Shown here one piece after another: positions 1,237 through 64,000 of a stretch of 64,000 bases of DNA (positions are counted from its first letter, which is position 1; every line of letters starts with the position of its first letter). The position numbers and the translations under genes were made by a program. The stretch is taken from IMG/VR virus record IMGVR_UViG_3300033156_000775, positions 32,001-96,000 of that record. One strand, given 5' to 3'. The notes beneath the pieces were generated by a model that made no database searches, was not told the origin of the DNA, and saw nothing but the letters and a program-made list of their open reading frames with translations. The stretch is from a virus.

Positions 1237-1275
1237 TGTTTATTCCTCCTAGCTATATGTAGTCCGGACTACACT

Positions 1276-2184
1276 TTAATAGTCAGCTGACATCCTATAT
1301 TTAAAATTAAACCTTATAGCCCTTGAAAGCTTGTTTTCATCTATAACAGCTATAGGTGTGAATCTCCCAGGATCTAAAATCCTAATGTTAGATAGGCTTG
1401 TCCTAGAGCTGAATAGGACTCTGTCACATAGTGAGATTAGATCATCAAGCTCATCTTGATAGAGGCTATAGACCACTATAGCTCCCTGAAGGATATATTC
1501 TGAGTATGATCTGTCTATCCATCTAGAATCAACTCTAGGCCTATCAACAATATCAACTGCAATTCTTGGGTAATTGTGTAAACTCAAATCCATACGGGGG
1601 TACTCACTGTATATCCAACCCCTAACAGCAAAGTTAAAGTACAAATCTACATTCAATGGGCTCCATGTGCCACCTTCTTCCTTGTTATAAGCTGTCCCCA
1701 CAAGATAATGAGTATCTACCGAGTCTCTCCCTATAGAGAAATAATCCACAGTTGAAGCAGTGTTCTTAGGCTCAAATACCAGCCAGTATGAAGTTTTAGA
1801 CCCTAGCATACTTGAAATTTTCAAGCTAGTAGAAACTGTAGATAGGGAAGTTGGTATGCTAGCTGCTGGAATAGATGAACTAGCTAATGTAGATCCAGAT
1901 GGCTGTCCATTAGAATCTGTTTGTAGGCTCACTACGATACCTGTATCTGGGCTTCCATATTTCCTAGCTTTGAATGTTACTGGAATAGTGTAAGAGTATG
2001 GGCTTGCTTTAGAGTAGCATTTAGAGTATGGAGTTATAGATTCAGCAAATGAAACATTAATTGTACTTCCAGCTGAGATAGTGGACATACCTGCCTCTAC
2101 AGTTCCATAGAGACACCTAGAATACAAATGGTCTCTAAGCTCATCTCTAATGATATTCTTTAAGCTGTTAAGGTTAAATGGCAT
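1276..2184 (-). CDS. Putative tail terminator/completion protein with an inserted Ser/Thr-rich beta domain
   Basis: Last gene of the capsid/head-completion run; C-terminal YPRIAV..beta-strand..DELDDL pattern is typical of tail terminators. Confidence 0.55.
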   Translation of the reverse strand: MPFNLNSLKNIIRDELRDHLYSRCLYGTVEAGMSTISAGSTINVSFAESITPYSKCYSKASPYSYTIPVTFKARKYGSPDTGIVVSLQTDSNGQPSGSTLASSSIPAASIPTSLSTVSTSLKISSMLGSKTSYWLVFEPKNTASTVDYFSIGRDSVDTHYLVGTAYNKEEGGTWSPLNVDLYFNFAVRGWIYSEYPRMDLSLHNYPRIAVDIVDRPRVDSRWIDRSYSEYILQGAIVVYSLYQDELDDLISLCDRVLFSSRTSLSNIRILDPGRFTPIAVIDENKLSRAIRFNFKYRMSADY

Positions 2185-2186
2185 AG

Positions 2187-2522
2187 CTATATCCTCTCCA
2201 ATAACCTTAAGATGTTATCTACAATTAAGGACCTAACTTCCTCCTTACTTTCGTATGCTATCTCTTCAAAGATGGAGTATAAAGATACTGGTTTAACCCT
2301 CCTGCCATAAACCCTACCTTGCCTAGAGGATTCTCTGAGTGTTGTCCGTCTAGACCTGATTACACCTCTCCATGGACGTGTCCTACCCTTGACTTCGTGC
2401 CCTATAGTTACATAGTCTGGGCCTCTTCTAACAACCAGGTTTGCATATGGAGGAGCTCTTGCTTCTAGCTTAGGGACTATAATGTTGTTAGCTGCCTCTT
2501 CCATAGCTGTAATCCTAAACAT
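2187..2522 (-). CDS. Putative neck/head-tail completion protein
   Basis: Basic 111-aa protein between the head-closure and terminator genes; call rests on synteny. Confidence 0.45.
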   Translation of the reverse strand: MFRITAMEEAANNIIVPKLEARAPPYANLVVRRGPDYVTIGHEVKGRTRPWRGVIRSRRTTLRESSRQGRVYGRRVKPVSLYSIFEEIAYESKEEVRSLIVDNILRLLERI

Positions 2523-2526
2523 TTCG

Positions 2527-2892
2527 TTACTCCCCTGACGAAATCTTGACTAAAATGGCTTCCCGAATGTCCACTGAATCTTTATGGTAGTGGTTAATTA
2601 TCTCTCTAACCTCAGTCTCAACATTGTCAGGGAGCACTACTCTGTCGTTGACACTTATAGTTACTGTACCAGAAAACAGTGCTGAGTAGTCTCCCTCTAG
2701 TCCTACTCCAAACATATTCCATACTTCACGCATTCCCCTAGTAGGAGTGACCCATGCCTTAGCTCTTAAAGTGTCAGAGTACGAGTCACTGGTAACGATC
2801 CCTTCAGAATCAGTGGACAATGATCTACGGTATATAGTGACATTCTGTCCAAACAGCTCTATCAGCTTCTCAGTTGGATATTGAAGACTCAT
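2527..2892 (-). CDS. Head-closure (head-tail joining) protein
   Basis: 121-aa beta-rich protein (GQNVTIYRR..ISVNDRV..EVREI) downstream of the adaptor gene. Confidence 0.6.
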   Translation of the reverse strand: MSLQYPTEKLIELFGQNVTIYRRSLSTDSEGIVTSDSYSDTLRAKAWVTPTRGMREVWNMFGVGLEGDYSALFSGTVTISVNDRVVLPDNVETEVREIINHYHKDSVDIREAILVKISSGE

Positions 2893-4571
2893 GTCATCAT
2901 ACTCCTTTCTAGAGTCATTTCCTCAGCTGTCTTTCTAACAGCTGATTTCTGCTTTACCAAGCTCATAATATGATAGTACTGGTCTAGATACTCTCTATAT
3001 GGCTTAACATCAAACCGTAATCTGATTGGTCCCCTAGCAATGGATATTGGAATAGCAGTGTACTTCTTAACATAGAACAAGAAAGCAGTTAGATAGGAAC
3101 ATGCTAGCTTAACCAGCTCCCAGTTGATGTTCTCTTCCCAGGTGTAGGAATAGTTACAAGTTATTTTTTCTATAGTTGAAGCTGGAGCTGAAGACAGCAC
3201 TATTTCCCCTAAGTCAGTATAGATTGTGGACACTGGAACCGTAGACCTTGTAGATGGATCTGAGCTGTCAGGCCACTGATAGACTGTGACATCAGATCCA
3301 GTTACAGCTTTGTCTCCATCTATATCAGCTATTGGGTAGTAAGCAGTAGTGAATGTGGTGTTAGTATTTCCACACCATACAGGCTTACCATTTCTAACGA
3401 TGTACATTATATGATTTGGGACAATAGCACAGTAAACTTTGCCTTTATAGTTTTCAATTGTAAACGATCTTGTGGAATTCCTCTTTCTTGGAAACCAATA
3501 AGGATAAAACCATTTGGTTCTAGGTATAATCTCCCAAGTTGTTTCAGTTGCGACAGTCGTACCTCTTGGAGTTCTAATTAAGTCCCCTTTCTTACTAGCA
3601 ATTCTGTAAGATGCAGATCTTCCTAACTTAAGATTTAATTCAATCATCTGGTCTCTTAATCGTCTGGAGCAGGTCCAGAAATGATTGTTAGATTTTTGTC
3701 CATCCCCTAAAATCAAAGCATCATGTAAAATCTGGAGTTGATCCTTATCTAATTGAAGAAATTCATTAGGAATAAAGCGTTCATTTTTTCTACCTAGTTT
3801 CTTAAGGTAATGGTGCAGAGCTTTAGATCTAACTGTAATCTCAAAGGATTCTGTAGCTGGGTTATAATATAGATAAGCCAGTTCCGGGAAACATCTCCTA
3901 GTATCCTCGTACATTTTCTTATATGATTCTTTCTTTTGAATTATTTTGACACTATAGTCATAAGTATTCTCTTCATAATCTAGAGTGCCATCAGTTATGT
4001 AGTACCCTAGAAACTTTAACCAGTCATTCATCGCTAGTTTTAAGTCACCTAATTTAAAGACTTCTATATGTTCACCTTTCCATTTTCCAGTTGTGATGAA
4101 TCTACATCTTTTGTCTTTCATATATTTAGCCTGAATTCGCCTATAGGAAGTGAAATAATCCTTGTTATTTTTCCTTTTTCTAATTTTAACATACATCCAA
4201 TGGTCAGGCGTGACGCATATATCAAGTGTTTTCGTCCTAAAGTGGTACATTTCGCCATTGTAATCTAGTTCTACTAGCTTTAATGGTTTTTGAAACTCTA
4301 TCTCTTGGGTTTCTGGGTTTAATGTGCAGATTTCGTCATCGTAATCAAGATCCTTAAAGAACTTTAATCCAGCCTTGGTTAATACCATAGTCTGGTCATC
4401 GTAGCATCCATCAATATTTCCACTTAGCTGCTCATCATGGACAGATATTGTTAGATCTTCTATAATCATTTGGGTGCTAAGGTCGATAAGGTCGCTAAGA
4501 TCCGAGTCATCAATGTCTGAAGCTGTAATGTCTGTTAACGCCCTAACATCAGGAACTGTACAATATCCCAA
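2889..4571 (-). CDS. Head-tail adaptor/connector protein containing a LAGLIDADG intein
   Basis: N-terminus YCTVPDVRAL and C-terminal VKLACSYLTA are typical of gp6/gp15-like adaptors; immediately follows the capsid gene; intein at aa 56-402. Confidence 0.75.
   Translation of the reverse strand: MGYCTVPDVRALTDITASDIDDSDLSDLIDLSTQMIIEDLTISVHDEQLSGNIDGCYDDQTMVLTKAGLKFFKDLDYDDEICTLNPETQEIEFQKPLKLVELDYNGEMYHFRTKTLDICVTPDHWMYVKIRKRKNNKDYFTSYRRIQAKYMKDKRCRFITTGKWKGEHIEVFKLGDLKLAMNDWLKFLGYYITDGTLDYEENTYDYSVKIIQKKESYKKMYEDTRRCFPELAYLYYNPATESFEITVRSKALHHYLKKLGRKNERFIPNEFLQLDKDQLQILHDALILGDGQKSNNHFWTCSRRLRDQMIELNLKLGRSASYRIASKKGDLIRTPRGTTVATETTWEIIPRTKWFYPYWFPRKRNSTRSFTIENYKGKVYCAIVPNHIMYIVRNGKPVWCGNTNTTFTTAYYPIADIDGDKAVTGSDVTVYQWPDSSDPSTRSTVPVSTIYTDLGEIVLSSAPASTIEKITCNYSYTWEENINWELVKLACSYLTAFLFYVKKYTAIPISIARGPIRLRFDVKPYREYLDQYYHIMSLVKQKSAVRKTAEEMTLERSMMT
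3366..4406 (-). mobile_element. Intein with homing endonuclease in the head-tail adaptor
   Basis: G|CYDDQTMVLT start; ICVTPDHW block B; FLGYYITDG and ALILGDG LAGLIDADG motifs; ends VWCGN followed by Thr(+1). Confidence 0.9.
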
Positions 4572-4681
4572 TTTTATGCACCTTCTAGTGTAGTCCGGAC
4601 TACACCTTGTAAAGAATGAACTTAGCCTCCTACTTGTAGAGGAGACTAGTTCAAGACTACTTATCCTTTAAACTAGGAGCC

Positions 4682-5752
4682 CTAAGCAGCTGGATATGTA
4701 GAGTCACTTGAAGCTGCATTCACAACCAGTGCAACTGCAAGTGTGTCAGCAACACCAAAGTTTCTCTCAGCCCAGAAGTTGTACCAGACTGAGTCGTACT
4801 CAGGCTTGTCCTGCCTGTGTCCCTCAAGGTCTCTCTTGATGACATCGTATCCAAGTCTAGATGAGTCCACAACTATGGCTGCTCCCTCAGGAGCTCTGGT
4901 GCTAAGCAGGACCTTCATACCAAAGATCTTCCCTATCTCACCATTCAGGATGGCTTCCCTGTCCCCATAGGCTGAGGCATCTACAAACTTCAAGTTGGTG
5001 TCAAAGAGCAATGTAGCTAGGTCAACAGGGTTAAGAATAACTATATCTGGGTTTCTCTTTTGTCCAACTACCTTAGCTCTGGCCCTCATAAGATCCTTAG
5101 CTGACAGTGAACCAGCATTGGTAGCAGCAACCCACATGGTGTTCCCTTTCTGCATGTTGGGATACTCAGTCACTACAGTGGCAGCTGCAACTGAACCAGT
5201 TAAGGTAATAGTCCCTGTGTCATACTGAACATTTGCAATGGTAGCTCCACTAACAGATATGATTCTAAGGATTGGGACATTGGTAGCTGCATCAACCGAG
5301 TCATTTGAAATAGCTACAGTTTCTCTCTTCAGGTCCATCATTATGGTCTGAGCCTGGTCATCAACAGCCTCAGCATACTCCAATCCAGCTTCGTAGATGT
5401 GGTCTTTGATCACATCTCTCAAAGCCTGCTCTAGAGCTTCATTAGTGAATTCAAGCTTGATACCTACTTTCTCAACACTTACTGTGACAGCGTCATATGC
5501 AAATGAAGAAGCTGACACTGTGCTCCCTGGAGATACTCCCCAGGTAACAGATATGCCAGTACCCTTCTTTGGGAACTGTATCTGTCTAGGCTTACCAGCT
5601 CCTACAAGGTCTCTGTTAGGCTTGAATAGCTGGGCAAACACACAGGCTCCCCTAGCTACCTCTTCAATAGAGTCTGCAATAGCCTTGCCAGTAATAGCTG
5701 CAACATCAGCAGTTCCTACTCCTAGTTCTTCTAATGTTTTAATCGCATTCAC
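4682..5752 (-). CDS. Major capsid protein (HK97 fold)
   Basis: Motifs ILNPVD..L, ILNGEIGKIFGMKV and KVGIKLEFTNEALE; probable GTG start at 5752 after AGGAGA, rather than the ORF-track start at 5767. Confidence 0.85.
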   Translation of the reverse strand: MNAIKTLEELGVGTADVAAITGKAIADSIEEVARGACVFAQLFKPNRDLVGAGKPRQIQFPKKGTGISVTWGVSPGSTVSASSFAYDAVTVSVEKVGIKLEFTNEALEQALRDVIKDHIYEAGLEYAEAVDDQAQTIMMDLKRETVAISNDSVDAATNVPILRIISVSGATIANVQYDTGTITLTGSVAAATVVTEYPNMQKGNTMWVAATNAGSLSAKDLMRARAKVVGQKRNPDIVILNPVDLATLLFDTNLKFVDASAYGDREAILNGEIGKIFGMKVLLSTRAPEGAAIVVDSSRLGYDVIKRDLEGHRQDKPEYDSVWYNFWAERNFGVADTLAVALVVNAASSDSTYPAA

Positions 5753-5767
5753 TCTCCTACAGCTCAA

Positions 5768-5935
5768 TATTCAAGGTAGAAGGATTATATAAAGCTATAT
5801 CTGCACTACAGTGTAGTCCGGACTACACTTCTCAATGAATAAGCTTATTAACTTCCACCTTACATTCTATAGCTTGACATCCAAGAGGGATGGATGTTCT
5901 GTATTAAAACCTCAAGAGGAGGTTAGGATAAGAGA
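5768..5935. promoter_or_regulatory. Divergent promoter region between the capsid operon and the tail operon, centred on a palindrome copy
   Basis: AT-rich TATA-like boxes (TTATATAAAG near 5785, TTATTAA near 5845) flank AGTGTAGTCCGGACTACACT at 5810-5829. Confidence 0.55.
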
Positions 5936-6886
5936 ATGAGCTACTATACAGACCGCTATGTGAAGTTTGGACAGGAAACTTCATGGGCTACTGCTGTCAC
6001 TCCAGACACATTTAGCAATTACCTGCTTAGGTTTGAAGGTGGATGGACAGATAATAGAGTAGATGAACCTGTAATTGCAGGGGAAAGGGATGCTAAGTCT
6101 AGGACCTATGTCCATAGAGAAGTAGCAGCTGTAATGCAGGTTCAGCCAGTGTCAGCCAGATGGTTTGAGCACTGTCTAGGAAGCCTAGATACTGCTGCTG
6201 GTAACTCTTTACCAGCTACCTTGACTCCTGGGTCTACACTGCCATCTATCACAGCTCAGAGAGTCTATAATCCAGTTCCAGGGGCTGAAGAGAATGCTCT
6301 TAAGCTTTGGGGCTTGAAAGTGGACACTTGGGAGCTTACAATAGAGCAGAGTGAAGACATAGTGCTAGAAATGAACTATGCTGGACATGACGGTACAATT
6401 GAAACTGTATCTTACTCAGCTCCATCAATAGACTATACTATCCCAGCTATGGCCTTCCACAATGCAGTTCTCAAATACAATGGAGACCCAATTAGGTTTA
6501 GGAGACTAGTAATTTCAGGGGACAACAATCTGGAGGCTAGATTCGAATCTGGAGGGACTCTTGGGAACACATTCTGCTGTCAGGAGCTAAGGGAAGGTGG
6601 ATGTGACATTAGTGGAAGGTTACAGCTAGACACTTCCCTAAGTACATACGCAGCTAATGTCCTCTCTAGAAGCGAAGGTACACTTGAATGTTCAATACAG
6701 ACATCAGCAGCTACAGTGGTTATTACATTGAGTAATGTAGCATTTGATGAATATAGAGAACCAATTACAGGGCTAGACGTCATAGAAGTTGAGATTCCAT
6801 TTAGCTGTAGAAGAGTAGATGCTAACACTCCAGCAATCCAGATGGTACAGAAGGGAACTGGACTCTGGACGGCTCTGAAGTACTAG
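5936..6886 (+). CDS. Major tail tube protein
   Basis: N-terminal FGQETSWATAVTP, plus LPSIT, GLKVDTWELTI and DISGRL patterns of siphoviral tail tube proteins; precedes the chaperone and tape measure genes. Confidence 0.8.
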   Translation: MSYYTDRYVKFGQETSWATAVTPDTFSNYLLRFEGGWTDNRVDEPVIAGERDAKSRTYVHREVAAVMQVQPVSARWFEHCLGSLDTAAGNSLPATLTPGSTLPSITAQRVYNPVPGAEENALKLWGLKVDTWELTIEQSEDIVLEMNYAGHDGTIETVSYSAPSIDYTIPAMAFHNAVLKYNGDPIRFRRLVISGDNNLEARFESGGTLGNTFCCQELREGGCDISGRLQLDTSLSTYAANVLSRSEGTLECSIQTSAATVVITLSNVAFDEYREPITGLDVIEVEIPFSCRRVDANTPAIQMVQKGTGLWTALKY

Positions 6887-6905
6887 AATAAAGAGGTGTC
6901 TAAGC

Positions 6906-7313
6906 GTGAACAGCAAATCGAAATATAGGATCAAGCTAGAGGATGTGCTCTTTAACGAGCCATGGGAGGTAGAGGTCCCTGGAGTTGGGACTGTCCTGGT
7001 TAGAGACCCAACTGAAAGGGACAGGATAGAAGCTAGGAAGGCAGCTAGGAAGCATCCTCTATGGGATGAACTGAATGATGTAGAGAAATCAGCTGAGATT
7101 CAGAAGCACCTAGCTAGGATCATGCTGGTTGAACCTAAGATATCTGAGGAGGACTATTTCAAGGCTAACTCAAATGTCATGAATGCTATACTTGACACTG
7201 TCTCCATGGTCTATGTTAAGAAGGTCAATGAGCTAACCAAGAAACGTCAGGAGCTCATAAGGGATTTTTTAGGAGCCCTGAAGGAAGGAAATCTATTGAG
7301 TTCTGGGAGCTAG
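6906..7313 (+). CDS. Tail assembly chaperone (lambda gpG-like)
   Basis: Lies between the tail tube and tape measure genes; slippery heptamer T TTT TTA at 7265-7271 near its 3' end. Confidence 0.75.
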   Translation: MNSKSKYRIKLEDVLFNEPWEVEVPGVGTVLVRDPTERDRIEARKAARKHPLWDELNDVEKSAEIQKHLARIMLVEPKISEEDYFKANSNVMNAILDTVSMVYVKKVNELTKKRQELIRDFLGALKEGNLLSSGS

Positions 7314-7495
7314 TTAAAGCCATGAACTATGACTTCAAGAGGGCTAGGGAGGTGTTCCTTGAGCTCACAGATGTCCAGAGACAGTGGATAGGTATGATGG
7401 TGAAGATAGATCAGATAAGGGCTAAGGATATAGAGGCTAAGCACAAAGTAGAAGCTACAATGAGTAAGGTGTTCAGGAGAGGTAGGTATGTCTGA
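7265..7495 (+). CDS. -1 frameshift extension of the tail chaperone (gpGT-like)
   Basis: The -1 frame is open from the slippery site (FFRSPEGRKSIEFWELVKAMNY..RRGRYV*) to a TGA overlapping the start of the tape measure gene. Confidence 0.7.
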   Translation, partial: FFRSPEGRKSIEFWELVKAMNYDFKRAREVFLELTDVQRQWIGMMVKIDQIRAKDIEAKHKVEATMSKVFRRGRYV

Positions 7496-8810
7496 GATCC
7501 CTATTAAGATACAGCTCCAGCTTGAGGAGACTCCTAGTGACATAGAGGCTAGGCTAGCAGCTATAGACAAGGAGCTGGAGAAGAAGCCTGGAGCTCTCAA
7601 GCAAATGGGTACTGCAACCCGGACTACATCCAGCCTCTTAAAATCATATTCAATAAATGTTGAAGGAGCTATTGAAAGCCAAGCCAAGCTTGGAGATGTC
7701 CTTGCAGATTTCAGAACTAAACAGATTGAGAACATAGCCCTGATGAACAAGTATGCGAGTGGACAGAAGCTGACTAGAAGTGAAATGAAGAAGCTCAATA
7801 GAGTAGTAACAGAAATGGCTAGGGGCCATGTGGCACTTTCTAATATTAATAGGAGAATAGGCCAGGAACTCTTCTGGTTAGGATTAGGAAGCATGTTCAT
7901 TGTAATGTCATATGCTAGATGGAGACGATCATCCCTAACTATAGAGAGTGCCCAGCTTTCTCTACGCAGGGCAGTTATGAGTATGGAGGAAGCTCAGAGA
8001 AGGGCTAGTGAAACCATACGGATGTATGGAGCTAGGAGTAGGGAGGCTAGAGCTGCAATACTGGATGCTGAGGAAGCAGAGCTGTCATATAAGCTAGCTG
8101 TTGATCGGGTTAGAAGCAGCATTGAGCAGCAGAACTATGCTCTCTGGACGTTTATCCTGGGTGCTGTACCAACCGTGATTAGGGCAGTGTTCAGCCTCAC
8201 TAACCTGTATCTTGAGCACTATGCAGCTCAGATTCAAGCTGGAACTGGAATGACCTCACTGTATATAAAGTCCATGCTAGAGACTAAGGGATACTTGATT
8301 AAGATTCCAATTCTAAACCTTACAATCAAGTCCTATTGGGGCATGGTAGCGGCTATGGGGGCAGCTACACTTGGATTGACATTGGTTCTCTCAGCATTAT
8401 CTTACTTCCTAACTGAGATACTAATTGTGAATCCAGCTATGGAGAAAATGAAAAGCAATCTAGAAGGTATAGAGGACTCACTAGTTGGGCATTCCCTAGT
8501 GAACGCTTTAAGAGCTACTAGAGCTGAGACTTCAGAGCTACGTAGAAGCTTTGTAGATCTGGGGCAGGAGGCTTCTAGGCTTCCCTTTAAGACTGGTTCT
8601 CCTCTTGAGGTACGTACAACCTATGGATGGGCAGAGCTAGCTCCTATGGAAAGGCTTGAGCTCCCTAGAGCACAACCAAGTGTGTCTCAGGTGAACATCA
8701 ACATTCAGGGTCCATTCTACATTAGAGAGGAAGCTGACATTTCCAAGTTGGCAGCTAAGATAGGTAGGCTTCAAATGTCCAGGGTTATACGTATGAGGGG
8801 AAGGACATAG
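7488..8810 (+). CDS. Tail tape measure protein
   Basis: 440 aa, helical and Ala/Leu-rich, with hydrophobic segments; C-terminal VNINIQGP; canonical position. Confidence 0.75.
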   Translation: MSEIPIKIQLQLEETPSDIEARLAAIDKELEKKPGALKQMGTATRTTSSLLKSYSINVEGAIESQAKLGDVLADFRTKQIENIALMNKYASGQKLTRSEMKKLNRVVTEMARGHVALSNINRRIGQELFWLGLGSMFIVMSYARWRRSSLTIESAQLSLRRAVMSMEEAQRRASETIRMYGARSREARAAILDAEEAELSYKLAVDRVRSSIEQQNYALWTFILGAVPTVIRAVFSLTNLYLEHYAAQIQAGTGMTSLYIKSMLETKGYLIKIPILNLTIKSYWGMVAAMGAATLGLTLVLSALSYFLTEILIVNPAMEKMKSNLEGIEDSLVGHSLVNALRATRAETSELRRSFVDLGQEASRLPFKTGSPLEVRTTYGWAELAPMERLELPRAQPSVSQVNINIQGPFYIREEADISKLAAKIGRLQMSRVIRMRGRT

Positions 8811-8850
8811 AATGTAGTCCGGACTACACGCAGTGTAGAGGTGAATTGAG

Positions 8851-11520
8851 ATGGCGTATGAGGGAGCTATGGAAGTTAGGTCTCTAGTAGAAGTGTTTAG
8901 AGGAGTAGCCTACAATAACGATGGTATGAGACCCTACGTAGCTGATACTGTACCGTATGGATGGAAGAATCTCACTTCAGGAGCAAACTGGTCTAGTGAT
9001 GGGGACATAGGAAGCGTCTCCTTTACTGCTCTATCTACATTTTCAGCTGTAGCTACAATAACTTCTACATTCTCTACTGATGTTTACTCATATTTGGTAG
9101 CTAGAGGAAGAGGGATAAATGGAGGATCATGGGCTGTAGGCTTCAAGGACCTAGCTGATAACATTTATTGGTCTCCATGGTATGGCAACAGCACTTTTGA
9201 AACTAAAGTGTATTCTCTCCCTTCTGGACACTCAATATCTGAGTATTATCTTAGAGGGACAGGTACATTCCAGGTTGACTATGTAGTCCTGTCATCTATA
9301 AGCCCACTTACAATCACACCAATCAACATGACAGTCAACAGGAACATTACTGGAGAGCTGACTGTTACAAGCTTCCATAAGGTCTTCACTGGAATTGTTG
9401 ATAGAGTAGAGAAGAACATCAGAGGCCATGAACCTAGAAGAATCACATTGAATGCTAGTGACTATGGACAGTACCTTCAACGCAGGAAGGTCAAGAGAGG
9501 ACGAATTTACGATGACTACTTTGACAATGTTGTTGCCCAGATAGTTGACTCACTTGTAGAAAATGGTGAGCTAACCATAGCCAATATTGACACTACAAAC
9601 CTACATTACTCTGTTAGGAAGGAGATCCAGAATGACACTTCAGGCTTTGATCTTCTGTTAAACCTAGCTGAGGAGCAGGATGCTGACTTCTATGTTGACT
9701 TTGGTAAGGACTTACACTACTTTAAACGTGGGACTAGAGAGAGTGGACTGAATATTGCTGCTACTGAAACAACTGAGTTTCCATTTGAAGAGGACATTAC
9801 TTCAATAATAAATGTACAGGAAGTGATAGGGGCTGATGGAGATAGCATTGGAAGTGACACTGAATGGACTGAGAGTTTAAGCAACTGGACTGGGAGTGGA
9901 AGCTTATCACTAGATTCTAATGTATATGATACTGACTCTGAGGGAGCATACTCTATAAAAAATAGAAACGCTACTGGAGGCACAGTCTGGTTTGCTAGGG
10001 ATATGGGTACACTTGACTTGAGCTTAGGAGGAGTGCTATGCTATTCTCTACAGCTAAGAGCTGTGAAAAGCTATACTGGGGGCAGGGCTGAGAAGCTGAT
10101 TACAAGGAACTATTTCATTGGGCCTAATGGAACTTTCTGGGTGGACATTGAAGCTTCAGGTGGCATTGAGTCCAGTCGTTCTCTAAGTAGATATGACGCT
10201 TCACCTTATCCTGAATATACAGAGGGCTATGCATTCTACTATTATCCTATGAGCAAGTTTGAAGTTCCCTTCAACTATAAAGCGAACTACAAGCTAGAGT
10301 CTTCGTTATCTGGTGAGCTAAGCTGGGATCAGATCAATACTATCAAGGTTGAAATTCTCAATCCAATTGTTACTGGATCGGAAGCCATAGCCTGGATAGA
10401 CAATATGCGTATAGAGCAAGTCCACTACTCTGGGACTATAGAAGATGCTGTGTCAATAAGCAAGTATGGTAGGAGAGAGGGGATACCTAGAGGACCGGAC
10501 TACTCACTGGACTCTAAGGAGAAATGTGAGAATATGGCTTCAATAATGGTTGCAGTGTACAAGGACCCTGTGAGAGTAATATCTGATGTAGAGACCATAC
10601 GTAACTTCACCTATGAGCCTGGACACGAATACACCATATCTGTAGAAGAGATGAGCAGTATACCTGTGATTCTAAGGAATATTAGACATGAAGTTGAAGG
10701 GCTAGACCTACATACATACCTGTCATTTTCAGAAAGGTGGATACCTAAGCCAGAGAAGCTGTTTACAACCTTGAAGAACCAGCTTGAGGCTTATGGATGG
10801 AACATAGAGGCATGGAAGAAAGCTAAGCTCCCATCAGCTGTGATACCTACAAGATCTGAGCAGATAGAGTTCTGGGAGTCAGCTATTGAATTTCCAAGGT
10901 ATGTGTTGTTTGACCAGAGATTTGTTACAGCTGTTACCCCCGACCAGAGCCAATATGATATTTCATACTCGTCTGGAGGATCAGGGTCAGTGACATTTGG
11001 ACCTACGTTTCACTTGTTCACTGGGGATGGAGCATTAAAGACAGTTAAGATTATTCCTAAAGCTTCCTCTGGGAAGTTGAAATATGACATTAACTCAGGG
11101 TTCAGAGCTAGAATAATTATTAACGCTGATACAATAGGACCTGATGTTGGAGCTGAGTTCCAAATATCCATTGGAAGTATGAATGTGTCATCTTACTCTT
11201 CTAACTATTATGGGTTCAGATTGAAGGAAGATGGCACTATAAACATTGAGGTAGGGAGCTCAACTGAGAAGTGGTACAATTCAGTAGCTATGGGTACATA
11301 TGCTGTTAACGATACAATAGACCTGTGGGCCATCTACGACAAGGAAAGTTACAAGATGTACTTCTTCAAGGATGGAATTATGAAGTTCATGTTTAGTGAA
11401 GTCACATTGGATACTAACATGTTACCCTTCTATTTATATGCTGTTACAGGAAGCAGTGCCACTGGAGGAATGAGCATAGCTGTTGAGGGACTAAACATCA
11501 TCCAGGGGTGGAAAGCATGA
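8851..11520 (+). CDS. Tail tip/hub protein
   Basis: 889 aa, beta-rich; hub-like motifs VFTGIVDRV..ITLNASDY, DFYVDFGKDLHYF and SISKYGRRE. Confidence 0.7.
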   Translation: MAYEGAMEVRSLVEVFRGVAYNNDGMRPYVADTVPYGWKNLTSGANWSSDGDIGSVSFTALSTFSAVATITSTFSTDVYSYLVARGRGINGGSWAVGFKDLADNIYWSPWYGNSTFETKVYSLPSGHSISEYYLRGTGTFQVDYVVLSSISPLTITPINMTVNRNITGELTVTSFHKVFTGIVDRVEKNIRGHEPRRITLNASDYGQYLQRRKVKRGRIYDDYFDNVVAQIVDSLVENGELTIANIDTTNLHYSVRKEIQNDTSGFDLLLNLAEEQDADFYVDFGKDLHYFKRGTRESGLNIAATETTEFPFEEDITSIINVQEVIGADGDSIGSDTEWTESLSNWTGSGSLSLDSNVYDTDSEGAYSIKNRNATGGTVWFARDMGTLDLSLGGVLCYSLQLRAVKSYTGGRAEKLITRNYFIGPNGTFWVDIEASGGIESSRSLSRYDASPYPEYTEGYAFYYYPMSKFEVPFNYKANYKLESSLSGELSWDQINTIKVEILNPIVTGSEAIAWIDNMRIEQVHYSGTIEDAVSISKYGRREGIPRGPDYSLDSKEKCENMASIMVAVYKDPVRVISDVETIRNFTYEPGHEYTISVEEMSSIPVILRNIRHEVEGLDLHTYLSFSERWIPKPEKLFTTLKNQLEAYGWNIEAWKKAKLPSAVIPTRSEQIEFWESAIEFPRYVLFDQRFVTAVTPDQSQYDISYSSGGSGSVTFGPTFHLFTGDGALKTVKIIPKASSGKLKYDINSGFRARIIINADTIGPDVGAEFQISIGSMNVSSYSSNYYGFRLKEDGTINIEVGSSTEKWYNSVAMGTYAVNDTIDLWAIYDKESYKMYFFKDGIMKFMFSEVTLDTNMLPFYLYAVTGSSATGGMSIAVEGLNIIQGWKA

Positions 11521-11726
11521 AAATAACAATTGAAAGGGTTGATCCTGAGGAAATAATTAGGGAGATAGTAGGGAGTATCCCATATCATGTCAGGAAGTCA
11601 GGTAATAGGATAGAGATCAAAATTGAAGATGCTGACGCTAGAACACTAAGTGTTGTCCGGACTACACTTAGAGACAGGATTAAGAGGAAGCTCCCTAGAG
11701 GATGGAAAGTGAGGATTGATGGGTAA
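11508..11726 (+). CDS. Small hypothetical protein (contains a palindrome copy encoding VVRTT)
   Basis: ORF overlapping the end of the tail tip gene. Confidence 0.5.
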   Translation: MESMKITIERVDPEEIIREIVGSIPYHVRKSGNRIEIKIEDADARTLSVVRTTLRDRIKRKLPRGWKVRIDG

Positions 11727-11877
11727 TGCCTATAACTTCCCCAGTTAGAGTAGTAAACTTTGAAATGCTATTGCTATTATCATCCCTAAATATAGAAGAA
11801 GGGTTCCCTAGCCTGAGTGTTTCAAGCAGGAATATAACTAATCATCAGATACAAACTTTTGGGGAGGTCAATATTGA

Positions 11878-35900: not shown

Positions 35901-35943
35901 ACAAGTGTAGCCCGGACTACATTTTGAGGGAGGATACTTAGCG

Positions 35944-51065: not shown

Positions 51066-51328
51066 TCCGGACTACATTTAAATTCACCTAAATGGAGAGA
51101 GAACATCCATGTATGGAAGGAGAAAACTAATTGTAATAGAAAGGAAAGATGAGAATGGAGATATCCTGCCCATATGGAACTGTCCATACTGTAATGGAAG
51201 CCTAGAAATAGTTCATAAGGAGGAATGTTCAAGTCTGGATATTTACAAGCAATGTACTAAATGTGGAAGAGTCTACAAAGAGACTTATGTGATAGAGCAG
51301 ATTGAATTAGTGGAGGACAGAATATACG

Positions 51329-54123: not shown

Positions 54124-54160
54124 ACTTATTAATCTTCTACTTCAGGAGAAGTGATATGCT

Positions 54161-54940
54161 TTGAAACTATTTTATTATTTGATGCAGGGAGATTGCTCAG
54201 AAGCTCTCTCTAAGATTGATGATGACTCAGTAAACCTGGCAGTTACAAGTCCTCCATACAACGTAGGCATAGATTATGGAGTCTACAAGGACAATCTAGA
54301 ATGGGAAGAGTATTATGACTGGTGTGAGAAATGGATGAGGGAGATTTATAGAGTTCTCAGACCGGATGGAAGATTCTGCTTAAATCACTATCTCAGCTTA
54401 GGTACTAGCAAAGCAAGGTCAAGTCCAATTTTAGAGCTCCACTGCCTATCTAGGAGAATAGGCTTTAAACACCATGCATTGGTGATATGGGAAGAAAGAA
54501 CGAGATCGAAATACACAGCTTGGGGAAGCTGGCTAAGTGCTTCTGCCCCATACATTAACTCTCCATATGAAGGCATACTAGTTCTGTACAAGGATCAATG
54601 GAAAAGAGCTGATAAAGGTAAGAGCACAATTTCTAAGGAAGAGTTTCTTGAAGGAGTTTCAGGAGTATGGAAACTAGGACCAGATAAGCTACGTTTGACT
54701 CCAGCTACCTTTCCAGAATCTCTACCTAAGAGATGTATAAGCCTATTGACTTTTGAAGGTGATGTTGTTTTAGATCCGTTTATGGGATCTGGCACTACAA
54801 TGAAAGCTGCTCAGGATCTTAAACGGAGCTGCATTGGGATTGAAATAAACCCGGAATATTGCAAGGTCATTAGGAGAAGGTGCTTCGGTAAGCTGTTTCT
54901 GGACTACGAGGCTGAATATAAATTCGAGATCTTTAAATGA
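54161..54940 (+). CDS. N4C/N6A DNA methyltransferase (beta class)
   Basis: VTSPPYN precedes VLDPFMGSGTT; GIEINPEY. Confidence 0.9.
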   Translation: MKLFYYLMQGDCSEALSKIDDDSVNLAVTSPPYNVGIDYGVYKDNLEWEEYYDWCEKWMREIYRVLRPDGRFCLNHYLSLGTSKARSSPILELHCLSRRIGFKHHALVIWEERTRSKYTAWGSWLSASAPYINSPYEGILVLYKDQWKRADKGKSTISKEEFLEGVSGVWKLGPDKLRLTPATFPESLPKRCISLLTFEGDVVLDPFMGSGTTMKAAQDLKRSCIGIEINPEYCKVIRRRCFGKLFLDYEAEYKFEIFK

Positions 54941-55885: not shown

Positions 55886-56563
55886 TTGGAGATTGCTTAT
55901 ATCCAGTCTATCAGCCTAATAGATTTCCCAGATACATTATCAGCTATAGTCTTCACTCAGGGATGCAATTTTTACTGTCCCTATTGTCAAAATCCTGATC
56001 TCATAAGAATCTCTAGAGGTAAGTTGTCAGGAATTGATGCTCTCAAGTACTTATCTAGGATCTCAGATAAGATAGAGGGAGTTTCAATCACTGGAGGAGA
56101 GCCTACCATACAGAAAGACCTTATCAGCTTCTGTAGAGCTATTAAAGACCTAGGTTTGAAGGTTAAGATCGATACTAATGGAAGCAATCCTAAGATGATT
56201 AGAGAGCTTCTTGATAGAGATATATTAGATTATATTGCTATGGACTTTAAAGCTCCATTATCTAAGTATCAGGAAGTCACTAGGTCAAATGTTAAGCCAG
56301 ATAGAATTCTAGAGTCAGCTAGAGCCATAATGGACTTTAGCATCCCATATGAGTTTAGAACTACAGTTGCTAAGGAGCTCCTCACCTTAGACGACATAGT
56401 TGAAATCTCCAAAATCTTAAAAGGTGCTAGACTATATGTAGTCCAGAAGGTACGATCCATCAAGACTCTTAGTCATATTCCATTCACTCCATACTCTGAC
56501 AGTGAGATCGAATCGATCAGGGATACTGTTCTCAATTATGTAAAGTCTTTCCTAGTTAGGTGA
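55886..56563 (+). CDS. nrdG: Anaerobic RNR activating radical-SAM protein
   Basis: GCNFYCPYCQNP (CxxxCxxC), ITGGEPT, KIDTNGS and EFRTT motifs; near nrdD. Confidence 0.92.
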   Translation: MEIAYIQSISLIDFPDTLSAIVFTQGCNFYCPYCQNPDLIRISRGKLSGIDALKYLSRISDKIEGVSITGGEPTIQKDLISFCRAIKDLGLKVKIDTNGSNPKMIRELLDRDILDYIAMDFKAPLSKYQEVTRSNVKPDRILESARAIMDFSIPYEFRTTVAKELLTLDDIVEISKILKGARLYVVQKVRSIKTLSHIPFTPYSDSEIESIRDTVLNYVKSFLVR

Positions 56564-56877
56564 AAGTGTAGTGTAGTCCGGACTACACATATTAAGCTTT
56601 AAATTTCAGATTGCTTCCTCTCTTATCATGGTGTATCAACATTGTCTGATGATAGGGGAAATGATCCTGACCTAACATTGGAAATTGTACAGAGGCTTTC
56701 AAGAGTAGAGACAAAGGTAGATGTGCTGTGCCAGGACTTCAAGGACTTTAAGAATTCATATAGATCCTTTAAGTCTGAGCGGCTATTGCAGTTGCCCTTA
56801 TCTCGTCCGTTGGACTTGTGATTCAAAAGATCATAGAGATTATACCTGTATTAATATAAAGTGTAGTCCGGACTACA

Positions 56878-57285
56878 TTGAGAGAGGTGAAACACTTGGG
56901 AACAAAGGATCTAGTTTATCAATACTTAAAATCTAAAGGATGCTCCTTCATTTCTGAAATTAAGAGGGATCTTTCTCTTCCATCTTATATGATATTTAAA
57001 GCTCTAAAAAGTCTTGAAAGAGACGGACTTGTACAGAAGTTTCCAGTAAACTTTTCTAAAGCTAGACACATAGGCCAGATTAGGTTATTTGGTAGAAGAA
57101 TTGGAAAGTACCTTTACTATACAGACAGAGAGAGCTTAATTTCTTTCCTCTCTAGGAATTTAAACCCCAAAGTATTTAGGCCCAAAGTCTCTCCAAAGCT
57201 ATTCTTTCCTGCCTTGACACTTGAAGAGTCAAGGACAATACATTATTATATTAAATCTCTAAGAAGTTTAGAATGCATTTCGTAA
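56878..57285 (+). CDS. Winged-helix protein
   Basis: FISEIKRDLSL..ALKSLERDGLV; a palindrome copy lies immediately upstream. Confidence 0.6.
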   Translation: MREVKHLGTKDLVYQYLKSKGCSFISEIKRDLSLPSYMIFKALKSLERDGLVQKFPVNFSKARHIGQIRLFGRRIGKYLYYTDRESLISFLSRNLNPKVFRPKVSPKLFFPALTLEESRTIHYYIKSLRSLECIS

Positions 57286-58506: not shown

Positions 58507-59529
58507 GTGGATATGTCTGAATGGAAGAACTTGGCTATTCCCTCAGAAGAAATTGAGGATGTAGCGTACTTTGTATATAGGAAGGGAACTAGAGTAGTCA
58601 AGAACATAGCTCTCAAGACCACTAGAGAAGTTATATTTCTTAACAGCCAGAGAGCTAGGAGACAGTTCCTTAACCATCTGGGTCTACCATTCCTGGACAC
58701 TGAGCGTATCTATGACTATAGAGAGAGAAACAGAGTTGTTAAGGAGGCCATAGAGAAGAGGTCTCGTCTTGAACGCTCAGGTAGAGCTTCAAAGCTGCTG
58801 TTTAGATGTAGGGAGCATCCTAGGTATGGTCTCCAAGCCTGGAGTGTAGTTACTGAGGAGTATGTTGAGATCCCAGTACCTGAAGCTAGGGACATGGCAT
58901 TCAACATCCTAGAGAAGGTGGTTGGAGGATACAAGCTTGAGCATTCATGGGACTCAGGGTCAGCATGGTACTACAGGGTTATCCTATACAAGGAAGATAA
59001 GCCATTAAAGGTAGGGGATATAGCCATCTGTGGGCTAGTATTCAAAATAGGATACTCAGGAGATAAGTCCCTAGCAGTGTATCCATACTGGAAGATCCTG
59101 TCATGTCTAAATGGACTGATGTCCCACCATTCAATTCAGATCTATAGGGGAATACATAGAGGAGATAAAGAGAAGATACTGTCAAGGTTTAGATATGCCA
59201 TCTATGAGGCTCTGGACAAGCTAATGGAGCTAGCTCCAATAATCGATAAGGCTAAGTCTCCAATTTCTGAAGCTGAAGAACGAGCTATGCTAGAGAAAGT
59301 GCTACGTAAGTACCCCCAGCATGTTCAGGAAAAAATATGGTATTTACTACGTTCAAAGTATAGGGATGAGACTGGAGTGTACAAGCTGTCACAAGCATTG
59401 TCTGATGTAGCCTCACATGGAATAGGGATTACTGATAGATATGCTCAGGAGCTGTCTAAAGATGCCTATAGACTTATAACCCGGTGTAGTCCGGACTACA
59501 CAGAAATAAAAGGAAATGGTAGAGAATGA
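58507..59529 (+). CDS. DUF932-like protein
   Basis: SVVTEEY..; G..SL.V....ILSCLNGL..H motif. Confidence 0.6.
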   Translation: MDMSEWKNLAIPSEEIEDVAYFVYRKGTRVVKNIALKTTREVIFLNSQRARRQFLNHLGLPFLDTERIYDYRERNRVVKEAIEKRSRLERSGRASKLLFRCREHPRYGLQAWSVVTEEYVEIPVPEARDMAFNILEKVVGGYKLEHSWDSGSAWYYRVILYKEDKPLKVGDIAICGLVFKIGYSGDKSLAVYPYWKILSCLNGLMSHHSIQIYRGIHRGDKEKILSRFRYAIYEALDKLMELAPIIDKAKSPISEAEERAMLEKVLRKYPQHVQEKIWYLLRSKYRDETGVYKLSQALSDVASHGIGITDRYAQELSKDAYRLITRCSPDYTEIKGNGRE

Positions 59530-61067: not shown

Positions 61068-61413
61068 AATTGGATTTGGAAAAGTCTGAAGTAAGTAGAT
61101 CTGAAAAAGAACCAGTCCTAAGAGACTCGTTTACAAATCTACTAGAAATGTTAGACATCATAGACGATATTTGGGAAAGGATAGATCTCCTCCATGCTAT
61201 GATGGATGTTAGCTTTGAGGAGTGGGAGCCTAAACCGTCAGCTAGACCTGTCCATGAAAAGAACTTTAGATTTGGAATGTACAGTCTATCTAACTTCATA
61301 CAATGTCAACTTGTAGAGATAAAGCTGAGTCTGGACAATCTGATCTCTAAATTTGTTACAGAAAAACCTCAGGCACATGAATCATGTTAACAAAAATAAA
61401 GGAGGAATGAGAC

Positions 61414-62406
61414 ATGAGTAATGTTCCGAATGAATATGTAGAGAAAATAAGGAAGTGGGCTGAGAAATACGCTATACCGTTAGGAGAGCTGGAAACAGAG
61501 CTTACTGAGAACTATGCTAGTGTCACAGAGGAGCATCCTAGCTACTCTGATGGTAGAAAGTGGAAAATAGCCTACAAGAGGCTAAGGGCTAGGATAATCA
61601 GTGAAGAGGAAGCTCCATTCAGTCCAGCTGTCATGTACACAGCCATGTTCTGTGGAGCTGAGAAGCTTAAGAACTCTATAGACCAGAAGAAAGCCAGGAT
61701 ACTAAGAATGTCCAAGGCAGATCAGCTAAGATACCATCCGGACGAGGACACATGGATAGATCCTAACACTGGAGAGGCCATAGATGACAGCACACCAGTA
61801 TGGGTAAGGACATTCTATGGTATAGGTAATGCAGGTGGAGACCTAGATCCGGCTAGAGCTGCATTCCTAAAGCTAGAGGCATGGAGAGACCAAGCACAAT
61901 CAATTGAATATGATCCATATACTGTCTATAAGTTCAGAGCTGTAAGTAAAGCTCAGAAGGCATCTAAGGATTGGTATTTAGGGGCTACCACAGCCACCAA
62001 GCTAAGACCCCATTCTAAACAGCTAGGTGAAGAAGAGCTAGTAGATTTCCTAACAAAGCTAGTGGAGAACCGTCAGCTGAAGCTCTTCAAGAGCAAAAGG
62101 GACATATTGACACTAGCTAAGACATGGGAAGGCTTCCAGGATCCAGTGTTCATTGAAGCTGAGGTTGGAAGGATAAGGATGAGGGAGAACAGTGACTCCA
62201 ATGTGGTGGATCTACTGGACATTGATGAGGAGGGAGGAGCCATTATGCAGGCATATGTACCTAAGTATCTGGAGATAGACTTCACTGAGGGACAGGATGT
62301 GCTGTTCCTAGCTACATTTGGAGAGATAACATTCCGTACTGGGAGGTCTAGGCTAGCAGCGTTTGTACGTGGATTCATCAGTCTACCAGAGGGAATTGAG
62401 ATATAG
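61414..62406 (+). CDS. Putative OB-fold ssDNA-binding protein
   Basis: Helical N-terminus followed by beta-rich OB-like repeats; acidic; located in the replication region. Confidence 0.4.
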   Translation: MSNVPNEYVEKIRKWAEKYAIPLGELETELTENYASVTEEHPSYSDGRKWKIAYKRLRARIISEEEAPFSPAVMYTAMFCGAEKLKNSIDQKKARILRMSKADQLRYHPDEDTWIDPNTGEAIDDSTPVWVRTFYGIGNAGGDLDPARAAFLKLEAWRDQAQSIEYDPYTVYKFRAVSKAQKASKDWYLGATTATKLRPHSKQLGEEELVDFLTKLVENRQLKLFKSKRDILTLAKTWEGFQDPVFIEAEVGRIRMRENSDSNVVDLLDIDEEGGAIMQAYVPKYLEIDFTEGQDVLFLATFGEITFRTGRSRLAAFVRGFISLPEGIEI

Positions 62407-62622
62407 TGTAGTCCGGACTACACAATATGGAGGAGAGATGTTGAGTACACCTGAAAAATGTCCACTGATCAAAACATGTAAAGAGAAGGTACCCAAAGAC
62501 ATCTTTGAAGACATATGTATGACTCCTGGATGGATTTACTGTGAAAGTGCAGTTGAGGAAGCTAAGAAACACTTCAAGCTCCCTAGAGAATGGATGAAAG
62601 AGTATGAGGAGGAGATGGAGTA

Positions 62623-63681
62623 ATGGAAGTGAAGGATATATTAAGTGATCTTATCACTGAAGTTACATTGTACTTTGGAGAGCCCTGGAGATACAAGAAC
62701 ACTGAGGGAGTTATCCTCCCAATAATAGCTAGGGCTTCATGGGAAAGGAACTATGTCCTACTTTCGGAGGTACAGGACCAGGTTAAGATAACTGACACTG
62801 GAAGCATCAGTAAGCTAAATGTAGAGAACAGCTCTGACAAGAATGTCCTCATTAGAACTGGAGAAATGTTAAAAGGGGCTTCAACTCAGCCAAGGACATT
62901 CCAGCGTTCAGCTGTCATAGCTCCTAACAAGAAGAGCCTCATAGACGTAAGATGTATTCAAGCTTCACACCCAATATTGCCTAGTAGCAGATTCACAGCT
63001 ACTGGATGGTATACTCCTAAAGAGGTCAATGAAGTCCTACTGTCTTCTTATTATACTCATAATAGGCAGGGTGCTGTATGGCAATGCATCAACAGTATCA
63101 GCACTACATATCATGCATTAGTGTCAGCATCAAGTCCAGAGCTAGCTACTTCTCTTAGCTACACAGATTCTCTGATAGATGCTCAGAGGACTTTGGAGTC
63201 TGGACTCAAAGTGCTAAGTGAAATGATTAGCCATGTCCCCATACATTCCAAGCAGGTAGGAGCTGTATTCTTCAAGGGAAACAAACTACTAGGGCTAGAG
63301 ATGTTTGACAGTCCAGATTCATGGAATGCTTCGTATGAAGCTGCTATCAAGAAGTATGGTTACAACCTAACAAGCCCAGTGGATGAGTCAGTGCTAGATG
63401 TCAAAGTTAGAGCTGAAGTTGTAAAGAAGAAGGCTAAGGAGTTCATTAGGAAAATCATTGAATCCAAGATACATGACAAGGTAGAAACTGGGCTCTATGA
63501 GTCCGCAATATTGGAGAGCAAGGATATAGTTGGTGAATATGTAAGGATGGACGACAGAGTAATCTATTTAGTGGCATTAGCAAAGGATCCTAGCCAAAAG
63601 CCTCCTAGCACCAGGACTTTTCCATCAACACAGACAATTACGTTTCCTGATGTGACATTCACAGGCTGGAGTGTGGAATGA
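62623..63681 (+). CDS. ARPP-1/DUF6569-like protein
   Basis: L.VEN....VLI..GEMLKGA..Q.R....S..I......IDVRCI; QGAVW; QVG......GLEMFDSP. Confidence 0.6.
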   Translation: MEVKDILSDLITEVTLYFGEPWRYKNTEGVILPIIARASWERNYVLLSEVQDQVKITDTGSISKLNVENSSDKNVLIRTGEMLKGASTQPRTFQRSAVIAPNKKSLIDVRCIQASHPILPSSRFTATGWYTPKEVNEVLLSSYYTHNRQGAVWQCINSISTTYHALVSASSPELATSLSYTDSLIDAQRTLESGLKVLSEMISHVPIHSKQVGAVFFKGNKLLGLEMFDSPDSWNASYEAAIKKYGYNLTSPVDESVLDVKVRAEVVKKKAKEFIRKIIESKIHDKVETGLYESAILESKDIVGEYVRMDDRVIYLVALAKDPSQKPPSTRTFPSTQTITFPDVTFTGWSVE

Positions 63682-64000
63682 AATTGGTTGACTTTAGGGA
63701 AAGGTTGAAATGGGTTACACCTGGAGAATGGGAGCTAATAAAGATCCCAGTAGAGGACATCAGGGGAATATCAAAGTTTAATGTTAGACAGATAGCTCCT
63801 GAGATGGAGATAGACATTCTAGCTAAATCCCTTAAAGTATCTGGGATCAACATAGTCCCAGTTGTCCTTGATGAGAACAATGAGGTCATAGCTGGTGGAC
63901 GTAGATACATGGCTGCTAAACGTGCAGGGATAAAGGAGCTATTTGCCATTAGGAAACCTATGAATGAGAAGGAAAAGCTAGTATACTCGATGATTGAGAA
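63678..64000 (+). CDS. ParB/Srx-family N-terminal domain protein (truncated by the window edge)
   Basis: Not in the ORF track; translated by hand as MKLVDF..KFNVRQ..LAKSLKVSGINIVPVVLDENNEVIAGGRRYMAAKRAGIKE..YSMIE, with the ParB GxxR box. Confidence 0.85.
   Translation, partial: MKLVDFRERLKWVTPGEWELIKIPVEDIRGISKFNVRQIAPEMEIDILAKSLKVSGINIVPVVLDENNEVIAGGRRYMAAKRAGIKELFAIRKPMNEKEKLVYSMIE

Follow-up and report, generated by a model that had tools for sequence, protein, structure and literature searches.

Dispersed 16-bp palindromes in the genome of a tailed virus, candidate binding sites for a dimeric DNA-binding protein

Noc and KorB act at many dispersed sites (PMC8429893; PMC11790492). Noc of Bacillus subtilis is an orphan paralogue of ParB, i.e. 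it lacks a ParA partner, and its many binding sites are dispersed palindromes of 16 bp, unspaced and with CCGG in the center (PMC8429893, PMC7383237). The Noc-binding site (NBS, TATTTCCC-GGGAAATA) and parS (TGTTTCAC-GTGAAACA) are both 16-bp unspaced palindromes with a central CG (PMC7383237). KorB, encoded on the IncP-1 plasmid RK2, is a nucleotide-dependent clamp of the ParB family that loads at dispersed palindromes, silences promoters at a distance, and works together with the clamp-locking KorA (PMC11790492). Cluster O mycobacteriophages harbor a 17-bp dyad repeat (5'-TGTTCGGNNNCCGAACA; 34 copies in Corndog), for which neither a function nor a binder has been assigned (PMC4351075), and Cluster A mycobacteriophages harbor stoperators, more than 20 repressor sites (L5 gp71 family) at promoters and in short intergenic spaces (PMC9283540). 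The array described here consists of copies of the palindrome TGTAGTCCGGACTACA in the IMG/VR record IMGVR_UViG_3300033156_000775, an uncultured tailed virus of 107 kb. The analyzed stretch of 64,000 nucleotides (the window) comprises bases 32001-96000 of the 107,029-bp record, which has a 114-bp terminal repeat and is 100% complete according to CheckV. An original prediction had proposed that the palindrome and a ParB-like gene form a parS/Noc-type system.

The motif is a variant of a dispersed palindrome type already seen, unexplained, in viral genomes. Like the Cluster O repeat, it is one invariant palindrome in more than 30 copies throughout the genome of a tailed virus, for which binding by a dimeric protein is predicted; the copies are mostly found between genes or at gene ends and mostly off promoters, with about one third in coding sequence. 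Both genomes encode a protein with a ParB-like domain and lack parA. The Cluster O repeat differs in its sequence apart from the TGT...ACA ends, in its 3-bp spacer (none in the viral site), and in its actinobacterial host; since a scan of the ParB-like Corndog protein gp90 detected ParB_N and no helix-turn-helix (HTH) domain, unlike in the viral ParB, the parallel is not leaned on. Cluster A stoperators resemble the array in their many sites in short intergenic spaces and at promoters, at roughly one per 2 kb. A stoperator-type site as such was rejected, because stoperators are 13 bp long, asymmetric, bound by monomers, and oriented with transcription, whereas the viral site is a perfect palindrome with symmetric flanks. 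With parS and the NBS, the viral site shares the format (16 bp, no spacer, central CG), not the sequence. Most likely, the palindromes have been selected as sites at which a dimeric DNA-binding protein of the virus binds, in a role that extends over the whole genome.

Copy number and symmetry of the palindrome

The window harbors 18 exact copies, as had been proposed for a minimum, and 100 dinucleotide-preserving shuffles yielded none. About eight near-exact copies had been claimed as well; these correspond to six copies with one and two with two mismatches, and four copies with three mismatches complete a set of 30, compared with 0.23 expected at up to three mismatches. The complete 107,029-bp record holds 29 exact copies and nine, five, and five copies with one, two, and three mismatches, respectively, 48 in total, which amounts to about one copy per 2 kb along the entire genome. 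Every three-mismatch copy retains one intact half-site and the center. Mismatches mostly affect the outer half-site positions 3, 4, and 6, and the CCGG center is rarely hit.

The consensus is an 18-bp palindrome, composed of the 16-bp core preceded by G (20 of the 29 exact copies) and followed by C (19 of 29), and 14 copies are perfect 18-bp palindromes. Outside these +/-1-2 nt, complementarity of the flanks is at background level, and copy-specific stem extensions were sought in the flanks and not found. None of the five double-mismatch copies shows a compensatory change, and only one of nine single mismatches is wobble-compatible. What is conserved is thus a two-fold-symmetric sequence and not pairing, a pattern characteristic of double-stranded DNA bound by a protein dimer. 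The CpG observed/expected ratio of the genome is 0.25, and nevertheless the motif center holds a CpG; CCGG occurs 77 times genome-wide, 46 times within motif copies and 31 times outside. This scarcity of CpG and the concentration of CCGG in the motif underline selection on it. A second palindrome family was sought in the virus genome and not found.

The motif is absent from the other IMG/VR contigs, and among 185,579 prokaryote genomes it turns up solely as isolated single copies. Hence, it belongs to the virus lineage and stems neither from a host genome nor from an adapter. An assembly artefact, which had been considered from the start, is excluded, as the motif recurs at the orthologous position in an independent metagenome contig (L029) of about 90% DNA identity.

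Placement, origin, and conservation of the copies

The copies in the window are the following (window positions; listed without strand):

1258-1273: exact, intergenic, 2 nt from the stop end of the minus-strand gene 1276-2184, in a 270-nt spacer
4589-4604: exact, intergenic, 17 nt upstream of where the minus-strand gene 2889-4571 starts, 77 nt past the capsid-like gene 4682-5767
5812-5827: exact, in the main divergent intergenic region (5768-5935) between capsid-like (minus strand) and tail-tube (plus strand) genes, 17 nt off a TATA-like ATTATATAAAG
7613-7628: three mismatches, within gene 7488-8810, one perfect half-site and the center retained
8813-8828: exact, gene junction, 2 nt past the stop of 7488-8810, with the next gene starting 22 nt further on at 8851
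11651-11666: one mismatch, between genes 8851-11520 and 11878-15153
16544-16559: one mismatch, junction and N-terminus of the TerL ATPase part, 4 nt past the stop of 15991-16539, reads MKDVVRTI in 16536-17090
18490-18505: three mismatches, within the TerL nuclease-part gene 17437-18840
18838-18853: three mismatches, overlaps the stop of 17437-18840
22841-22856: one mismatch, intergenic, small-ORF (open reading frame) region
23002-23017: exact, overlaps a small-ORF stop
23409-23424: one mismatch, end of a small ORF
24843-24858: exact, end of a small ORF
27903-27918: two mismatches, provides the stop of gene 27380-27907
28701-28716: three mismatches, within the RNA-ligase gene
29837-29852: exact, provides the TAG stop of the RNA-ligase gene 28606-29841
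32579-32594: exact, first of a pair 121 bp apart
32700-32715: exact, intergenic, second of this pair
34724-34739: two mismatches, within gene 34446-35900, reads VVRST
35906-35921: one mismatch, gene junction, 5 nt past the stop of 34446-35900, with the next start 22 nt further on at 35944
36533-36548: exact, in frame in gene 36297-37112, reads VVRTT
42257-42272: exact, gene junction, 16 nt past the stop of 41569-42240, with Shine-Dalgarno sequence and start within the next 16 nt
45820-45835: one mismatch, in frame in the ATP-dependent DNA ligase, reads AVRTT
48235-48250: exact, in frame in the P-loop gene 47543-48358, reads VVRTT
51061-51076: exact, provides the TAG with which the HTH_45 winged-helix gene ends, directly adjacent to a TATA-like ATTTAAAT that precedes the next ATG by about 26 nt
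53749-53764: exact, last eight codons of NrdD
56572-56587: exact, 8 nt past the stop of the radical-SAM gene 55886-56563, opens the pair that brackets a 314-nt spacer
56862-56877: exact, between a TATA-like TTAATATAAA and the Shine-Dalgarno sequence and start of the TrmB-like gene, operator-like geometry
59485-59500: exact, near the C-terminus of gene 58507-59529, reads CSPDY
62407-62422: exact, immediately past the TAG stop of gene 61414-62406, all 18 bp kept in contig L029

Exact copies show a strong association with gene ends: in 52%, an ORF of 80 aa or more has its stop no more than 25 nt away, compared with 5% of random positions (maximum 21% in 2000 trials). Four exact copies provide a TAG stop with motif bases 3-5, and five more begin 0-2 nt past a stop; the overlaps with stop codons reported earlier for 29837 and 51061 are both of the former kind. 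A typical arrangement consists of stop, palindrome, 5-8 nt, Shine-Dalgarno sequence, and start, and co-directional junctions have a median spacer of 46.5 nt with a copy and 3 nt without. About one third of the copies are located in coding sequence, and one lies in a convergent junction. The in-frame copies use two frames, which yield VVRTT-like and CSPDY-like peptides, as the frame readout confirmed for the peptides named by the original prediction; the third frame is never used because it contains TAG. Copies are more evenly spaced than expected by chance (coefficient of variation 0.68; P=0.0024 vs. uniform placement, 0.0002 vs. random sampling of gene junctions), which points to a need for genome-wide coverage.

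Two annotations beside these copies deserve mention. The TROVE label given earlier to the gene at 34446 found no Pfam match at E<=0.001, which leaves the motif unaffected. The 314-nt spacer (56564-56877) that holds the exact copies 56572 and 56862 contains a TATA-like CTTTAAATT and a doubtful minus-strand ORF of 66 aa; located upstream of the TrmB-like gene, the spacer may have a regulatory function or encode a small RNA.

The coding copies are informative on the origin of the sites. The AVRTT copy of the DNA ligase aligns without insertion to archaeal ligases (AVKAS in 3rr5) and thus arose by substitution. Similarly, the P-loop protein 47543-48358 aligns without indels to its relatives, which read VVRTT (94% identity), VSRTT (80%), and VRRTS (79%). 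No Y1/RAYT transposase (PF01797) was matched in the genome, and neither target duplications nor conserved flanks were seen at the copies. Taken together, these observations indicate that the sites were written by point substitution under selection and did not spread as a mobile element. Judged from the sequence, the motif is under clear selection and is written even into coding sequence, where it constrains the protein (VVRTT, CSPDY); it is an example of a DNA-level signal constraining protein sequence.

Relatives were compared via six short metagenome contigs of 1.5-6.4 kb, and the ParB relatives share 94%, 83%, and 76% identity with the viral protein. Contigs of about 90% DNA identity keep all three checkable sites, two at the DNA level and one as the VVRTT peptide. 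In addition to the completely kept site at 62407, the first 10 bases of the site that follows it are kept, up to the contig end. As a neutral 16-mer would survive in about 18% of cases at 90% identity, this supports purifying selection. In the compared contigs, no indels or rearrangements map to comparable sites. More distant comparisons yielded little: scans of IMG/VR gave two short contigs encoding a ParB of 34% identity and nothing related to PolB, a GTDB genome scan gave no close relative, and a homologue search with a 2008-aa protein bearing two motif copies returned only the protein itself. The two contigs with the 34%-identical ParB carry other perfect 16-bp palindromes, TGTTAAATATTTAACA and AAGCGATTAATCGCTT (L024:1842, 4756; L025:1456), one of which is located about 250 bp upstream of the ParB match.

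Candidate binding proteins and competing explanations

Dispersed palindromes such as the Cluster O repeat have been seen in phage genomes with no protein or function assigned to them; here, the candidate readers are few, one of the ParB/Noc type and two with a winged helix, the latter found by Pfam scans that covered about 80 further ORFs:

63678-64000, plus strand: orphan ParB/Noc-like gene (290 aa), 5' part; the gene ends 550 nt past the window end
50760-51065, plus strand: HTH_45 winged-helix gene, rival candidate binder (PF14947, E 3.5e-10)
56878-57285, plus strand: TrmB-like winged-helix gene, rival candidate binder (PF01978, E 9.1e-5, below the curated cut-off)

The gene starting at 63678, recognized earlier by its ParB domain, encodes ParB_N, the N-terminal NTPase-like domain, at residues 20-109 (PF02195, E 5.6e-11) and an HTH at residues 123-171, and no other ParB_N gene is present in the genome. 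The full protein has a Noc/Spo0J-like DNA-binding domain, matched in Pfam by generic models only (HTH_23 and others) and not by PF17762. A profile of four viral ParBs (this one and three relatives) aligns to Noc (7NG0/7NFU) over residues 25-209 with E 2.7e-12, spanning both the N-terminal and the DNA-binding domain, and also to Spo0J (1VZ0). The fold relationship was taken from this sequence-profile matching to the PDB, as the AlphaFold2 model is too poor for a fold search. The nucleotide-binding boxes of Noc, GERRWRA and ENLQR, have GGRRYMA and ENVVR as their aligned counterparts in the viral protein; with Met in place of the third Arg in the first box, it is uncertain whether the viral protein binds nucleotide. 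By sequence, the nearest cellular relatives are Noc proteins (31% identity), in a language-model atlas the clusters closest to it consist of archaeal ParBs, and a tblastn search of GenBank phages gave distant or host-like matches only. A ParA-type ATPase was found neither as a PF13614 match in six frames nor as a KGGxGK-type motif in any ORF, and no LG(R/K)GL ParA-interaction motif was seen in the aligned ParB N-terminus. The lack of a ParA-type ATPase excludes a classical partition system and makes the viral ParB an orphan, like Noc.

Noc is hence both the closest solved and the closest cellular relative. It differs in being a protein of Firmicutes cells that tethers DNA to the membrane and blocks division, while the host of the virus is probably archaeal; a membrane helix in the viral ParB would be a guess. 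The assignment of the host is based on the archaeal best solved matches of the ligase, the archaeal clusters nearest to ParB, the HTH_45/TrmB-type regulators, and TATA-like boxes at archaeal spacing. For KorB, the likeness lies in the mechanism, which we infer for the viral ParB. KorB is plasmid-borne, has a ParA-type partner (IncC) on RK2, and is served there by about 12 OB sites with a 13-bp, odd-length palindromic core, whereas the virus has no Pfam match to a KorB domain, no ParA, an even 16-bp palindrome, and about 48 candidate sites.

The ParB gene overlaps at its start with an ARPP-1 domain gene (PF20208, 62623-63681) and is followed by a dCMP deaminase-like gene. Motif copies at 62407 and at genome position 96966 flank this group of three genes; in the literature on ARPP-1, no link to ParB was found. 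At genome positions 95995-96005, the codons of the ENVVR box spell a motif half-site (TGTAGTCCG), kept in L029 and not in L026, which is possibly a coincidence.

Most probably, the array is read by one virus-encoded dimeric, sequence-specific protein that binds double-stranded DNA. Selection would make and keep the about 48 candidate sites by point substitution wherever 16 fixed bases are tolerated, i.e. at gene junctions, at gene ends, and at the few spots that tolerate VVRTT or CSPDY, with a spacing even enough to cover the whole chromosome. As a tentative further step, for which the odds are somewhat short of even, the leading candidate for the binder is the single, partner-less ParB/Noc-type protein, which would act by clamp loading. 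Each site would then load nucleotide-dependent ParB clamps that slide over the neighboring 1-2 kb and together coat the whole viral genome. Silencing, organization, tethering, or marking of the genome could be the purpose of such a coat, in the manner of KorB on RK2 or Noc on the Bacillus chromosome; a part in ParA-driven partition is not expected. Sites of 16 bp for loading at even spacing, with clamps self-marking or coating the 107-kb chromosome, could thus be a viral counterpart of KorB/OB or Noc/NBS, a possibility we hold with the same reserve. Both the identity of the binder and the clamp mechanism are what we infer from the analysis. Of the parS/Noc-type system originally proposed, the 16-bp unspaced palindrome with central CG and the Noc-type ParB with its HTH stand, and the ParA partner and a close match of the half-site do not. 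Likewise, the idea of loading sites for a clamp that segregates, compacts, tethers, or marks the genome is backed by the dimeric-site behavior and the Noc-type ParB, and loses its partition part; the relatives of about 77-80% DNA identity also speak partly against it.

Several observations weigh against ParB as the reader. The viral half-site agrees with parS in 4/8 and with the NBS in 4/8 positions, and with either of them in 5/8 (P about 0.06). ParB-like genes are common in large viruses, so that the presence of one is weak evidence on its own. The AlphaFold2 model has a mean pLDDT (predicted local distance difference test score) of 55, and residues 172-290, where a C-terminal dimerization domain would lie, are predicted helical at pLDDT <50. 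In a lineage of about 77-80% DNA identity, ParB is 83% identical with an identical recognition helix, and the motif is absent at both of two sites. At the deaminase/PolB junction of this lineage, the copy is missing, the spacer is 6 nt shorter, and only CTACA is left; its 6.3 kb contain no copy, no half-site, and no CCGG, a small sample, as the orthologous stretch of the present genome has only one copy. The second site is that of the P-loop gene, where VSRTT or VRRTS is read instead of VVRTT, and a replacement palindrome sought in the 77-80% relatives was not found. ParB being kept where the motif is missing lowers confidence in ParB as reader. The original prediction had regarded ParB-bearing relatives without the motif as a refutation; this lineage lacks it, the relatives at about 90% keep it, and the link between ParB and the motif is weakened, not refuted, because the sample is small. 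Finally, copies 51061 and 56862 occupy operator-like positions at the two winged-helix genes.

These two copies lead to a somewhat less probable explanation, in which a winged-helix dimer (TrmB-like or HTH_45) would use the sites as a genome-wide network of operators and roadblocks. It would repress promoters at sites that overlap TATA/TSS elements and, at junctions, stop elongating RNA polymerase in both directions, a palindromic version of mycobacteriophage stoperators. Copy 56862 shows archaeal operator geometry, which for the TrmB-like gene would be autoregulatory, copy 51061 ends the HTH_45 gene next to a TATA-like box, and the main divergent intergenic region holds a copy as well. The association with stops, the copy in a convergent junction, and the precedent of Cluster A, with its many repressor sites in short intergenic spaces (PMC9283540), fit such a block, and A/T-rich tracts are mildly enriched near sites (42%, compared with 24% at random positions and 30% at control junctions). 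The majority of copies, however, have no promoter-like neighbor, about one third lie inside coding sequence, even genome-wide spacing is unexpected for operators, and the TrmB match is below the Pfam cut-off. The alternative of a global winged-helix operator, already raised with the first description of the motif, keeps a fair probability. Clearly less probable is a target of another viral protein or enzyme, be it for nicking or recombination, for organizing or packaging the genome, or for modifying CCGG. About 100 ORFs lack a Pfam match, the virus has an ERCC4 nuclease and three N6/N4 DNA methylase genes, and the similar Cluster O repeat is likewise without an assigned binder or function (PMC4351075); yet no specific candidate is tied to the motif, 16-18 bp is long for a methylase site, and comparable sites show neither indels nor rearrangements.

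An RNA hairpin at mRNA 3' ends or between cistrons, serving as processing site, stabilizer, uncoupler, or terminator, would account for the strong association with stop codons, four of which are held by exact copies, and for spacers of 46 nt at motif junctions instead of the 3-nt median elsewhere; a 20-nt version folds at -8.3 kcal/mol, and a palindrome gives an equal hairpin on either strand. The 16-mer hairpin is weak (-4.0 kcal/mol), though, its CCGG loop is itself palindromic, and a T5 tract follows only 2/43 copies, values at which an intrinsic terminator was rejected. The missing copy-specific stem extensions and compensatory changes demote the hairpin to a very improbable explanation. 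A tiny mobile palindromic element spread by insertion, similar to repetitive extragenic palindromes (REP) or Rickettsia palindromic elements, would explain identical copies, many of them in spacers about 40 nt longer than usual. It can hardly be upheld: no RAYT/Y1 transposase and no target duplications are present, conservation ends at +/-1-2 nt, and the motif is absent from other viral contigs and a singleton in cells. The insertion-free alignments of the ligase and P-loop copies and the absent transposase largely refute it, and they answer in favor of substitution the earlier question of how the copies arose.

With ParB as the reader, the management of whole viral chromosomes would fall to CTP-switch clamps, possibly in archaea, for which, to our knowledge, little is known of ParB biology. 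If a winged-helix protein reads the motif, a new virus group would possess a silencing network that resembles stoperators and has palindromic sites. In both cases, similar motifs in other viruses would become easier to explain.

Further features of the virus genome

The large terminase appears to be split into an ATPase part (16536-17090, 184 aa) and a nuclease part (17437-18840, 467 aa, Terminase_6C) that lie 346 nt apart, which could reflect an intron, an intein remnant, or a frameshift. Outside the window, at genome positions 103879-106410 (L007:13879-16407), an 843-aa N6/N4 DNA methylase is interrupted by a LAGLIDADG domain in what looks like an intein. Two further N6_N4 methylase ORFs are located in the window at 54161-54940 and 43662-44039, the latter with the C-terminal part of the domain only. 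The tetranucleotides GCGC and CGCG are absent from the 107 kb, where base composition predicts about 184 occurrences and a second-order model 3-10, and AGCT (1358 vs. 387 expected) and CTAG (853 vs. 387 expected) are strongly over-represented. A large sugar-modification block at genome positions 4724-13349 (L005, outside the window) encodes several glycosyltransferases, three NAD-dependent epimerase/dehydratases, a UbiA prenyltransferase, a radical SAM/SPASM protein, and a glycosyltransferase fused to a dual-specificity phosphatase domain.

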